From Eledone cirrhosa (Eukaryota): a stretch of 64,000 nucleotides of DNA. The position numbers were made by a program, and so were the translations under genes. This document shows, in pieces, positions 19,984-53,861 of the stretch. The stretch spans positions 38,130,001 through 38,194,000 of the forward strand of contig OZ024749.1 in assembly GCA_964016885.1 (NCBI GenBank). The letters run 5' to 3'. Position 1 is the first letter of the stretch. Each line of letters starts with the position of its first letter. Below the pieces are notes generated by a model. That model worked only from the letters and a program-made list of their open reading frames with translations. It ran no database searches and was not told where the DNA came from.

Positions 19984-20370
19984 ACGAGTAGTCTAATTAG
20001 TCCAGAATTAGCCGTCGAAACGGCCTGAGCTCAGCCGTCGGGGTCCTACTCGTTCCTATTACCCACTCTACTACCCTAAGTTTTGAGTACGTTGGTGCGT
20101 TATCGTCCACCTGGTTCCTTACCACATTTCCTTCGTTATATATATATATATATATATATATATATAACGGAGGAAATGTGGTAAGGAACCAGGTGGACCA
20201 TAACGCACCAAAGTATTGAATACTTAGTGTAGTAGAGTGGGTAATAGGAACGAGTAGGACCCCGACGGCTGAGCTCAGGCCGTTTCGACGGCTAATTCTG
20301 GACAAAATTTAGTCCAGAATTAGCCGTCGAAACGGCTTGAGCTCAGCCGTCGGGGTCCTACTCGTTCCTA
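19984..20370. mobile_element. Two adjacent family B fold-back insertions (19984-20138 and 20165-20370) in (TA)n
   Basis: ~140-bp unit tagtccagaattagccgtcgaaacggc...gttccta+tail...ttccttcgtta, present in both orientations. Confidence 0.85.
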
Positions 20371-21047
20371 TATATATATATATAAATATATATATATATA
20401 TGTACATATATATATATATATATATATATATATAGATATATGTATGTATCTATATATATACATATATGTATATTTATATACCTATATATATATATATAGA
20501 GAGAGATATCTATATATATACATATATGTATAATTATATATATATAAATATATATAAATATATGTATATATCTATATATATATATAGATATATGTATATA
20601 TCTATATATATATATATATATGTATATTTATATATATATATAGATATAGATATATGTATATATCTATATATATACATATATGTATATTTATATATATATA
20701 TAGATATATATATATACATATATATATATATACATATATATATATATATATATACATATATATATATATATACATATATATATATATACATATATATATA
20801 TATATATATACGTATATATATATATATATATATACACACATATATATATATATATATATATATATATATATATATATATATATATATATATATGTATAAT
20901 TCGCTCCACGTCCTTTTCTTCTTTAAGTTTACCATATTATTATTTGTGGTATATAAATGTCGAGATTTGCTGAAATAAATCACTGCCAATACAGGAATTG
21001 AAATATCAAAACCGTGGAGGTATGTCATATATCAAATCATATATTTT

Positions 21048-21101
21048 ATCTGACGAGGACGTACTGAAAAAACAACACAGTACCTTCGAAATATATATAA
21101 T
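21048..21101 (+). ncRNA. Hammerhead motif whose stem I is cut by a SINE
   Basis: CTGACGA-GGA.GTACTG...CAGTAC.TTC-GAAA-TATATA-TA-AT, followed directly by SINE sequence. Confidence 0.6.
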
Positions 21102-21266
21102 TGTTTCTACTTTTGGCACAAAGCCAGTGTATTACTGGTACTTTATTTTATCGACCCCGTAAGGATGAAAGGCAAAGTTAACCTCGGCGGGATTTGAACT
21201 CAGATCATAAAGGGAGGTAACTCTATGCTTCAAAGCATGACGCCCGACCATCTACCGATACTGCCA
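21099..21266 (-). mobile_element. tRNA-derived SINE (main family)
   Basis: Matches the reverse complement of the full-length copy at 59859-60039. Confidence 0.9.
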
Positions 21267-21967
21267 GATATATATATATATATATGCATGCAAACACAGA
21301 TTCCGTAGGGCTTACCTCGCCTTCAAACCCCATAATGACCCGGGGGGGGGGGGGGGGTAGACAAGGGCTGTAACACCCCACTTGCCGACTTTGTAATGGG
21401 TAACCCCTGCTTACAAAGGTAGACGTAAGATTTTCTTATATATTTTTTATCGTTTCCTCTATATTTCCTCCTTCCACCCATCCTCTCCTAGTCGTTCCAC
21501 CCAGTTCTCTTTCTTTGTAGTCGTTCTTTTCACCTTCTCGCCTACCCCTCAGTACCTCCACCCCACCCCCTATTCTATGATAGAATTGGCCGACTCCGCT
21601 TTTTATAGATGTGCTAGACCCCAGATACTTGCTTTCTTATCCGATTGCTGCCCCATTTCCGTGATTTCTAGATTTCTTAGTGGTATCTCTGCTTTAGTTT
21701 CTCGTATATCAGTATTTACTTATTGTTTCGACTTCCTCCCCCCTTCCCCCTCTCTAGTATACTTCTCTTGACCTCTTATCCTTAGCATTCTGCTGTAGTT
21801 GTCACTTTCAACGCACGACTGGGTTTCCTCCACTCCCTCTCCCTCTTTCTTCTACTGGCAAATTCAGCTACCACTTCCTTCCACAAAATGCCATGATAGA
21901 ATTATGTGTCTCAACAACAAACTGTTGACCAATCCTTGTGACAATCACTTTTACCATATATGGAATT

Positions 21968-22063
21968 ACCCCCTGAGAATCTCGGCTATTCATTTACCAG
22001 GATAAACATTTTCATTTAGTCCAGAATTAGCCGTAGAAACGGCTTGAGCTCAGCCGTCGGGGT
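21968..22063 (+). ncRNA. Complete family B type I hammerhead (element ends at 22077)
   Basis: ACCCC-CTGAGAA-stem II (CGGCTA.TTC/GAA.TAGCCG, large loop)-GAAA-CGGCT-TGAGCTC-AGCCG-TC-GGGGT. GUC site. This copy has a C3/A8 mismatch. Confidence 0.75.
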
Positions 22064-51729: not shown

Positions 51730-51832
51730 TAAAGTTATTGATATGGTTAAACGAGAAACACACGTCGATTCTGGAGTTTATTAGCTATGCATCTGACCGT
51801 CTTTCTCTCGTTTAACCATATCAACGACTTTA
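51730..51832. mobile_element. MITE-like element with ~28-bp TIRs
   Basis: taaagttattgatatggttaaacgaga ... tctcgtttaaccatatcaacgacttta. Confidence 0.6.
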
Positions 51833-53484
51833 TAACTTTTCTTGTGCAACTTCAGTGTAGATGCAAAATACAGTATGATAAAGCCATACCAGTCTAAGTT
51901 ACGATTACGTAAAAATGACGTATTGGCATTGCAGAGATGTGTATAACTGAATAGATTTAATTATGTAATAAAACAACACTGTCTTAATGTTCATTCGCAT
52001 ACACAATATATCTGTGTCTCTGTATGTGTACGTGTCTCTGTGTGTTTATGCATGTATATATATATGTGTGTGTTTGTGTGTCTGTGTATTTGTTTTTAAG
52101 CAGGATTTAAACTTGAAATGAAAGCCATTTATGGCAGATTCTGAAGTAATTATTCCATTCAGTGGCTACCATAAATGACACATTATGTCTAAACCATTTT
52201 GTTTCTGAACGGCGTCTCACTTCTATGTCCTTCGAATACAAACAACTGTATTCCCCCTTTGGCCAAAAATCTCATCTTCTTGCAGAACAACATGACATTA
52301 GGAATATTGCAAACGTTTAAGAAATATACAGCTTAGACTGGATGCATTATGGCTGAAGAGTAGTTCGCCTCGCAATCATTAGGTAACGGATTCGATCACA
52401 ATTCAGTATATTTTGTGCAGATGTAATTTACAGCACCCTTGGATCGATTCATATCGAGTGAAATTGATTAGACAAACGGTTGGAAAACGGTCGATCGGAT
52501 TTTACTTGTAATTCAAAAGACTAGACTTGTCACATTTTGTGTTTCTACGTATCTCCTTGCAAATTACATTAAGGATACAAGTCACTGAGTAAGGCTCCAT
52601 CACTTACACGGTAATTCCAGTTGGTCCAACAACTGAAACAATTTTCATCAAACTCGACGGTGGGTCATTCCAGAAAGCAGGTCATAGTATTTCTATATCT
52701 AATAATTTCCAAGAAAGTAATGAAGAGTGGGTGCTTATACTCATCCCCCAAAAGTACAACATGAAATAAAAGAGCTTGTAATAGGACACAACGACGCGTA
52801 ACACGCGTTTGGAATATAACCTACGGCCGTATGATCGCGACCTCAACATCTTAAACCACTTAGACAAATGGCCTCACGCCCTCATAGAATATTGCTTTTT
52901 AATTTAGCCACAAATCCAACAAATTTGTAGGGAAGAAAAGGCGTTTAAATCGAACCAGTGTTTGACTGGTACTTCGGAATGCTGAAAGGTAAAATTGAGC
53001 TCAACGGGATCTGTCCTCAGAACATAAAAAGCCATATCGATTCTAACATGTCCCTGTCCTACATATCATGAGAGTGTAATTCTTTCTAAAATTGACGAAA
53101 AGCCAGTATTCAGGGGGAAAAGGAAAATCGATATATCAACCCCAATGCTTAATTGGCACTTGAGTTTATCGAACCAGAAAGGATGAATCGCTACGTTAAA
53201 CTCTGCAGAATCTGAACTCAGGACATAGACAGCTGATTCTGCCAATCCACCTACACGCAGGGATAGCATAATCACATGAATTATTGTAATACAACTGTCT
53301 ATTTCTTTGTAGTCATTTATCAACAGCCTGTCATTTTATTAGTAGTTCCAATAATTCAAATACTGTCACAATTCCATAGGATATTAAACTCAAGTATATA
53401 TATATATATATAACGGCATTCCTAAATTTTAACGACAATACAACTTTCTCCGGCTTAGCCTGTCCCCCCCCCCCTTTGGAACCT

Positions 53485-53520
53485 TCCCCCGTTGATGGGC
53501 GTGAGCCCGAAATATTGGGA
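53485..53520 (+). ncRNA. Degenerate hammerhead motif
   Basis: TCCC-CCGTTGA(2 changes from CTGATGA)-T-GGGC-GTGA-GCCC-GAAA-TA-TT-GGGA. Confidence 0.5.
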
Positions 53521-53726
53521 TTAAATCTCCACTACGGTAACCCTTCTACCTTTGTTTTGTTTTCATTTTCATTTTCACTTTTCTCCTATTTTTCACTCAC
53601 TTCTTACCTCGAGATTTCCCATCTGCATTGTTGTGGCTTTCTAAACTACATATTTTACACATTTCACAATGCTTCAAGCAAACTTTAACACCCTCTTATA
53701 TATATATATATATATATATATATATA

Positions 53727-53861
53727 TAGGAACCAGTAAGACCCCGACAGCTGAGCTCAAGCCGTTTCGACGGCTAATTCTGGACTCACTCTACTACCTC
53801 AAGTATTGAGTACTTTGGTGCGTTATGGTCCACCTGGTTCCTTACCACATTTCCTTCGTTA
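53727..53861 (+). mobile_element. Family B insertion with the paired part of the direct arm deleted
   Basis: Inverted copy fused directly to the tail. Same termini, (TA)n flanks. Confidence 0.85.

Follow-up and report, generated by a model that had tools for sequence, protein, structure and literature searches.

Eight short insertions of one repeat family (family B) lie in a 64,000-nt stretch of the Eledone cirrhosa genome (GenBank assembly GCA_964016885.1, contig OZ024749.1, positions 38,130,001 to 38,194,000 of the forward strand; hereafter, the window). They raise the question of why insertions with two fixed termini should change strand at a recurrent point inside a hammerhead ribozyme motif. 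A preliminary description of the window proposed that the growing cDNA, on folding back at the hairpin of the ribozyme, primes its own second strand. From counts across the 3.0-Gb genome around the window, we consider a different route probable, in which two cDNAs are primed at two fixed sites on one RNA and run off its 5′ end.

Fixed ends, shared stop, and identity of the element

Positions in the element are counted from the tail end of a natural, near-full reference copy (L061:4385-8179), with 0 placed 4 nt into its TA run. On this scale, −83 marks the tail-less end and −143 the A of AGTCCAG; the hammerhead is predicted to cut between −103 and −102. The arm sample comprises 510 mapped arms (524 before merging of duplicates, which is possibly incomplete) from the window and 190 loci. 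The loci were picked by two end patterns plus bystanders, nearly all in the first 78 Mb of contig C1 and the flanks of the window. The tail-less search pattern selects the C lineage, one of the two (C and T) compared below, and loci chosen by core, read-through, or junction patterns were excluded from the 510-arm counts.

The two fixed ends described in the window are a property of the family: 424 of the 510 arms end at 0 or −83, sites that are 80 nt apart, and 398 of these 424 run into (TA)n. The inner breakpoints are not scattered uniformly, as 337 of the 510 arms stop within a 14-nt zone (−148 to −135) and only 31 run beyond −150. Exact matches in the genome number 15,369 for the tailed end, 6,349 for one variant of the tail-less end, and 316 for read-through past the tail. 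Across the zone, matches drop 29-fold, from 38,648 for the 18-mer just 3′ of the flip point (−135 to −118) to 1,329 for the 27-mer ribozyme core; the 18-mer at −168 to −151 (296 matches) is polymorphic and was left out of this estimate. About 3% of arms reach the CUGA half of the ribozyme, and nearly all inserts are stripped of it, as had been proposed. Short-read contigs (one public sample, three runs, possibly the source of the assembly) have loose ends at −146, −143, −84, and −3, plus a depth step at the same place. Given the genome-wide arm counts and these loose ends, neither the fixed ends nor the flip zone is due to chance or to a long-read artifact. The earlier placement of the flip in loop II needs refining: within stem II, the zone covers the 3′ side of the large loop and of the distal stem, and the 3′ strand of stem II follows directly after it.

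Judged by sequence, the family B copies are 3′ stubs of a 3.5-kb Penelope-like element (PLE) of the Hydra clade that carries its hammerhead in a pseudo-long terminal repeat (pseudo-LTR). The unit of 3,534 nt has one open reading frame (ORF) that combines a reverse transcriptase (RT) with a C-terminal GIY-YIG domain, in which YRDD and VIY..YIG are present (743-aa frame in locus L065, 557-aa frame in L061). The pseudo-LTR is seen as a self-match in L061 (4385-4645/7919-8179), and tandem arrays of the element have a period of 3,531 to 3,544. Sizes form a continuum from short stubs to full-length RT-bearing copies, and partial and full tandems, an inverted 5′-truncated partner, and an optional tail were all seen, as expected of an endonuclease-bearing (EN+) PLE. 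The ORF has the Hydra-clade motifs RWR, DKT, CNLCSEE, and CKH, a single Cys between VIY and YIG, and no CCHH. There are 195 homologues at E≤1e−20, and the motifs recur in 100 to 114 of 120 homologues. The CxCx5C linker is found in 103 of these 120 and is intact in 2 of 9 readings of fetched loci (overlapping loci unmerged), its last Cys being Phe in the other 7. Insertion into (TA)n likewise fits the Hydra clade. Assignment to Neptune was ruled out by the absence of Cx2-5CxxC and CCHH. A Pfam scan of the ORF returned 0 families, and a PDB sequence search returned nothing useful.

Full-length head-to-tail arrays of 3 to 4 units occur in genome G000 at C1:91476614, C1:437200348, and C2:320551597. 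The one of these that was read (L190-L193) has a U3-A8 core, and its lowest-energy fold is the hammerhead. The last seven bases of the tail recur behind the hammerhead in Hydra-2_Amil (by eye; File S2 of PMC8557442; here and below, statements on published work refer to the accessible portions of the papers) and are perhaps a conserved priming or binding signal.

Inverted junctions and the probable priming of both arms

Of 201 inverted pairs, 189 combine one tailed with one tail-less arm. Their junctions are diverse: 125 inverted junctions comprise 94 distinct strings, 82 of them singletons, and include blunt joints, 1- to 2-nt overlaps, and untemplated runs of A or T. This diversity indicates that the breakpoints arose independently and excludes a single already-inverted master, the alternative that the preliminary description had itself raised. 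The broader version, in which one or a few inverted masters were amplified as a DNA miniature inverted-repeat transposable element (MITE) or as a non-autonomous RNA element, can draw on the terminal inverted arms, the TA flanks, and 12 recurring junction strings, the commonest found 7 times in the 125. It is nevertheless hardly credible, for the MITE feature of one fixed internal structure in many copies is absent, the arms follow the lineage markers of the full-length element, and the stubs grade into RT-bearing copies.

Self-priming by fold-back is not supported by the junctions as the main route. A folded-back arm copies only what the first strand contains, yet at 118 junctions the tail-less arm runs further in 44, the tailed arm in 56, and both equally far in 18; even with all overlap assigned to the tailed arm, the tail-less arm is at least 2 nt further in 31 of the 118. 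In 16 of the 189 tailed and tail-less pairs, such as the window copy at 53727, the arms do not overlap at all, and joints of this kind also occur in the short-read contigs. Loop II is not kept at the junctions, where spacers of zero or one base leave no room for a loop. Copies without an inversion share the stop zone and also carry tail-less ends. The minimal geometry of fold-back is found at 14 of 118 junctions, and 118 joints centered on stem III, the best natural hairpin, exist genome-wide. Lineage markers agree between the arms in 74 of 76 pairs, against an expectation of 27.7, as if both arms were copied from one template; this concordance fits fold-back equally well and cannot separate it from twin priming. 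We therefore regard fold-back as very improbable as the general explanation and as a minor route at most. A splice-acceptor reading of TTTCATTTAG was also ruled out, as no upstream exon recurs at the junctions.

The best explanation of the junctions is, in our judgment, probably twin priming with run-off at the RNA 5′ end. A likely dimeric protein would nick both strands of the (TA)n target, and reverse transcription of a single RNA would begin from each nicked strand, at the tail end (0) for one and 80 nt upstream (−83) for the other. Both cDNAs would then run off the RNA 5′ end, and their 3′ ends would anneal or be joined. Since its start would lie inside stem-loop II, the usual RNA could not cleave; read-through RNA from tandem copies would hold the whole ribozyme, and its cut product would give rise to a class of insertions ending at −102. 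In twin priming of L1, reportedly described by Ostertag and Kazazian in 2001, two target-primed cDNAs are said to be joined head to head with microhomology or untemplated bases, the second primer landing anywhere and the arms lacking overlap. The head-to-head joining is alike in family B, whereas both priming sites are fixed, and the arms mostly overlap and share a stop.

Putative RNA 5′ ends and the predicted hammerhead cut site

Of 70 read-through loci, taken as the first 30 of those listed plus 40 of the remaining 70, 43 pass the zone (four of them from one array), compared with about 3% of arms overall. This passage disfavors a fixed barrier. In 17 of the 70, the sequence switches from a variable point 3′ of the tail to the 5′ boundary of the element (counted by eye), at −140 to −146 in 11 cases, at −102 in 5, and elsewhere in 1; 16 of these 17 template jumps thus leave from one of the two stops. 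Locus L119 repeats one identical jump twice. Together with the untemplated bases, the jumps and the read-through passage suggest that the stops are very probably physical RNA ends. On balance, we read the main stop (−147 to −136) as a transcription start inside stem-loop II, so that the usual transcript would be without the CUGA half and would have only about 145 nt ahead of the first priming site. Alternatively, a nuclease may cut the RNA in the loop.

Several observations limit this reading of the main stop. Read-through copies are a selected set, and their high pass rate is not a clean test. The base before A−143 is G in 3,338, C in 3,229, and A in 674 cases; C is templated in one lineage, and G can derive from the partner arm. 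Among copies with pure TA flanks (by eye), the G:C ratio is 34:12 at −143 and 14:6 at −142, so the cap-G signal is not specific. A test of cap-G in the sample is suggestive at most (12 of 21 versus 9 of 37, P = 0.02).

A second, smaller stop lies at the predicted hammerhead cut. The motif reads as a hammerhead, as first described, and as one of type I by sequence and predicted fold. Of the two proposed core consensuses, CUGAGGA or UUGAGAA, only the latter occurs among the first 100 of the 1,329 core matches, which, read by eye, comprise 65 CUGAGAA, 30 UUGAGAA, 5 others, and no CUGAGGA. Thus, 30 have a U3-A8 pair and 65 a C3-A8 mismatch. The U3-A8 covariant has been reported in Cercyon PLEs of Schistosoma (PMC4209133). 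We counted element boundaries around the predicted cut in the assembly with patterns that require three non-matching bases before the boundary, and obtained 53 at −105, 84 at −103, 896 at −102, 431 at −101, and 172 at −100. By eye, intact copies with a slip in the G run account for 20 of the first 100 rows at −102 and for 69 of 100 at −101. With slips removed and the −105 and −103 counts, which come from stricter patterns, multiplied by 1.5, the profile becomes about 80, 126, 715, 130, and 160, which is a single-base peak at the predicted cut of about five times its neighbors. The base preceding −102 is T in about 45 of 80 kept rows, and the window copy at 46089 starts twice at the cut site.

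The peak differs between lineages. Insertions in which both arms end at −102, with 0 to 3 nt between them, number 210 in the T lineage and 59 in the C lineage, a 3.1-fold excess of T over C per intact arm (20,455 T and 17,791 C). T at −96 is linked to the paired core: it accompanies U3-A8 in 21 of 32 long copies and C3-A8 in 0 of 50. An earlier comparison of lineages, 54:26 at −102 versus 14:39 at −105, was discarded and replaced by these rates per intact arm because −105 is C biased and the ratio overstates the effect. We suggest that the −102 end is quite probably the product of hammerhead self-cleavage in read-through transcripts.

This interpretation also has evidence against it. The −102 class is small, roughly 3 to 5% of arms after correction. 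The C lineage, in which 48 of 59 long copies have the mismatched C3-A8 core, also has −102 ends, and single ends amount to 2.2% in T versus 1.5% in C (raw). The 510-arm sample is without a T excess at −102, whether ends are taken from BLAST (2 of 156 T, 7 of 216 C) or from motifs (4 of 122 versus 4 of 168). Zero-spacer joints (22 of the first 50 in the T lineage) can be read as 2-nt CG microhomology as well, and some −102 ends are GG microhomologies. Folding shows that the hammerhead stems can form; the fold is unexceptional relative to shuffles (z = −1.17 and −0.34) and is the lowest-energy one in only one of three copies tested. No hammerhead family appeared among the best 150 of 494 rows of an Rfam scan, the rows being microsatellite and hairpin noise. 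That the commonest long copies carry the C3-A8 mismatch suggests that cleavage is dispensable.

Another possibility is that priming is twin but the main stop is a roadblock, formed by RNA structure or a bound protein at the top of stem II of a longer RNA, and that the −102 ends reflect both pausing where stem III begins, at its foot, and microhomology in the G run. The breadth of the zone (12 to 14 nt), its position in a predicted stem-loop, the lack of specificity of the cap-G signal, and the −102 peak in the C lineage would all be compatible with this. The polymerase, however, would have to traverse the stronger stems III and II and halt only at the top, and a pause at stem III predicts ends at −103/−104, both of which are low. 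Moreover, the read-through copies pass the zone, template jumps leave from it, and other hammerhead families in the window flip about 6 or 70 nt upstream of the core. We thus consider a roadblock unlikely and prefer run-off at RNA ends.

Copies in the window, known systems, and significance

All eight copies reported in the window are present and flanked by (TA)n (Table 1). The interval first given for the long copy (21968-22063) is that of its hammerhead, and the copy itself begins in the end of the ORF. That most copies flip at one point is borne out for 20165, 39842, 43321, 53727, and the diverged 45681, each with at least one arm ending at about −137 to −147. Of the exceptions, the copy at 19984 starts there behind its inverted remnant, the one at 21968 does not flip, and the one at 46089 flips at −97/−102.

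Table 1. Family B features in the window (element positions on the L061 scale)
Feature	Window position	Strand	Description
Stub	19985..20138	+	Inverted remnant of 7 nt precedes a forward arm that starts at −145 (19997) and runs along the 80-nt tail into (TA)n
Inverted pair	20165..20370		Tailed arm minus (20165 to about 20304), tail-less arm plus (about 20307 to 20370); both end near −146
Long tail-less 5′-truncated copy	21285..22077	+	ORF end, 3′ untranslated region with internal deletion, complete hammerhead; matches L061 and L012
Predicted type I hammerhead (sequence and folding)	21968..22063	+	Stem I 21968-21972/22059-22063; core CUGAGAA 21973-21979 (C3 opposite A8); GAAA 22036-22039; predicted cut between 22058 and 22059
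Main stop zone (−147 to −136), putative RNA 5′ end	22014..22025	+	Words TCATTT/TTAGTC, which we take to resemble an initiator motif
Inverted pair	39842..40059		Minus-strand tailed arm joined to plus-strand tail-less arm through an untemplated A run
Inverted pair	43321..43514		Tail-less arm (minus strand) reaches −143, further than the tailed arm (plus strand), which begins at −137
Diverged inverted pair	45681..45814		Older lineage, internal deletion
Template-jump copy	46089..46341		Minus-strand tailed arm ends at about −97; plus-strand arm starts at the predicted cut site (46181) and crosses the tail to +38; after a T, a second start at the cut site (46323) runs to the tail-less end
Non-overlapping pair	53727..53861		Tail-less arm minus −83 to −143, tailed arm plus −78 to 0

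The window contains further hammerhead sequences. A second family (58730-59150 and about 4250-4550, minus strand) has a CUGAUGA core; the strand change of its inverted pair lies about 70 nt upstream of that core. A third flips about 6 nt upstream of its CUGAUGA core (45845-46050, between the family B copies at 45681 and 46089, and about 6430-6680). A long inverted pair at 47000-47900 has hammerhead-like CUGACGA cores at 47202 (−) and 47711 (+), and isolated hammerhead-like motifs with canonical CUGANGA..GAAA lie at 21050, 4168, and 54222 (−). Apart from these, a 310-aa open frame at 37665-38597 (−) is a non-LTR-type RT fragment, and tandem repeat arrays at 7700-11000 and 14600-17700 yield long spurious open frames. 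At about 54270-54372 (−), we read by eye a Cys-rich EGF-like exon with a GT donor behind it, so that a minus-strand gene may host the insertions in its introns.

The Hydra clade of C-terminal EN+ PLEs was defined by Craig et al. 2021 (PMC8557442) and includes the octopus family Hydra-1_Obim. The PLE class is known for pseudo-LTRs, for a truncated partner in inverted orientation, and for a tail that may or may not be present. In common with the clade (PMC8557442), our element has RW[KR], DKT, the CxCx5C linker (in part of the readings), no CCHH, CxxC/CxH around the catalytic E and N, (TA)n targets, a hammerhead in the 3′ region, and an inverted 5′-truncated partner. Unlike Hydra-1_Obim, it measures 3.5 kb rather than under 3 kb, its hammerhead sequence is dissimilar (by eye), and its core is U3-A8 or C3-A8; its tail is 80 nt rather than the usual 30 to 40 (PMC8557442).

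The closest mechanistic data concern PAc (Poseidon, from the green anole; Frangieh et al. 2024, PMC11167929), which starts reverse transcription at two internal sites bounding the tail, nicks and extends each strand of the target, and can dispense with hammerhead cleavage in vitro. The two tail-bounding start sites, the AT-rich targets, and the hammerhead upstream of the starts are as in family B. In PAc, in contrast, no reads fall at the hammerhead cut, where family B has its single-base peak; 5′ stops were not mapped and inverted arms are left unexplained in the accessible text, whereas each pair here uses one of each start site. By analogy with PAc, the stubs would be unable to move again, being without sequence 3′ of the tail. 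In R2 elements with 5′ hepatitis delta virus (HDV)-like ribozymes (PMC3774820), genomic 5′ junctions mark the cut, untemplated bases are added at run-off, and templates are jumped. Junctions at a ribozyme cut, untemplated bases, and jumps are thus common to both, whereas the ribozyme and RT class differ and the cut defines most full-length ends in R2 and a minority here.

Non-LTR retrozymes (PMC4209133; bioRxiv 10.64898/2026.07.22.740005) are likewise short tandem units derived from PLE pseudo-LTRs. Mini-tandems of about 245 to 340 nt made by template jumps are found at L119:7248-8000 and in L183, L384, and L374. Unlike retrozymes, they start at −146 or −102 and are without the CUGA half, and so they are not self-cleaving arrays; the whole hammerhead that each retrozyme unit holds is missing from these short tandems. 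Retrozyme-like repeats could possibly arise from them.

Both the element and its architecture belong to a kind already known. In a full-text literature search that covered open papers, few subscription papers, and part of the supplements (PAc Figs. S1-S2 and the bioRxiv files being outside it), we found neither the likely footprint of cleavage in vivo nor any mapping of the inversion points of PLEs onto RNA ends or the cut of the hammerhead. The origin of inverted and tandem PLE ends and hammerhead cutting in vivo are named as open questions in the accessible parts of PMC8557442, PMC4209133, and PMC11167929. On these questions, the family offers tens of thousands of independent events, base-level stops, and a built-in comparison of two core variants. 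Our observations suggest that most insertions are stubs because reverse transcription begins near the RNA 5′ end, and not because the enzyme falls off. The minority that stops exactly at the predicted cut is likely a trace of self-cutting in living cells. More tentatively, we propose that a promoter inside the hammerhead disarms ordinary transcripts, that read-through RNA self-cleaves in vivo at GUC in a core-dependent manner, and that an RT with two start sites uses one RNA to prime both DNA strands and jumps from end to end. If this is true, the genome would be a fossil 5′-end map of PLE RNA, and the inverted tail-less arm, the tail, and the retrozyme-like mini-tandems of this class would be explained jointly.

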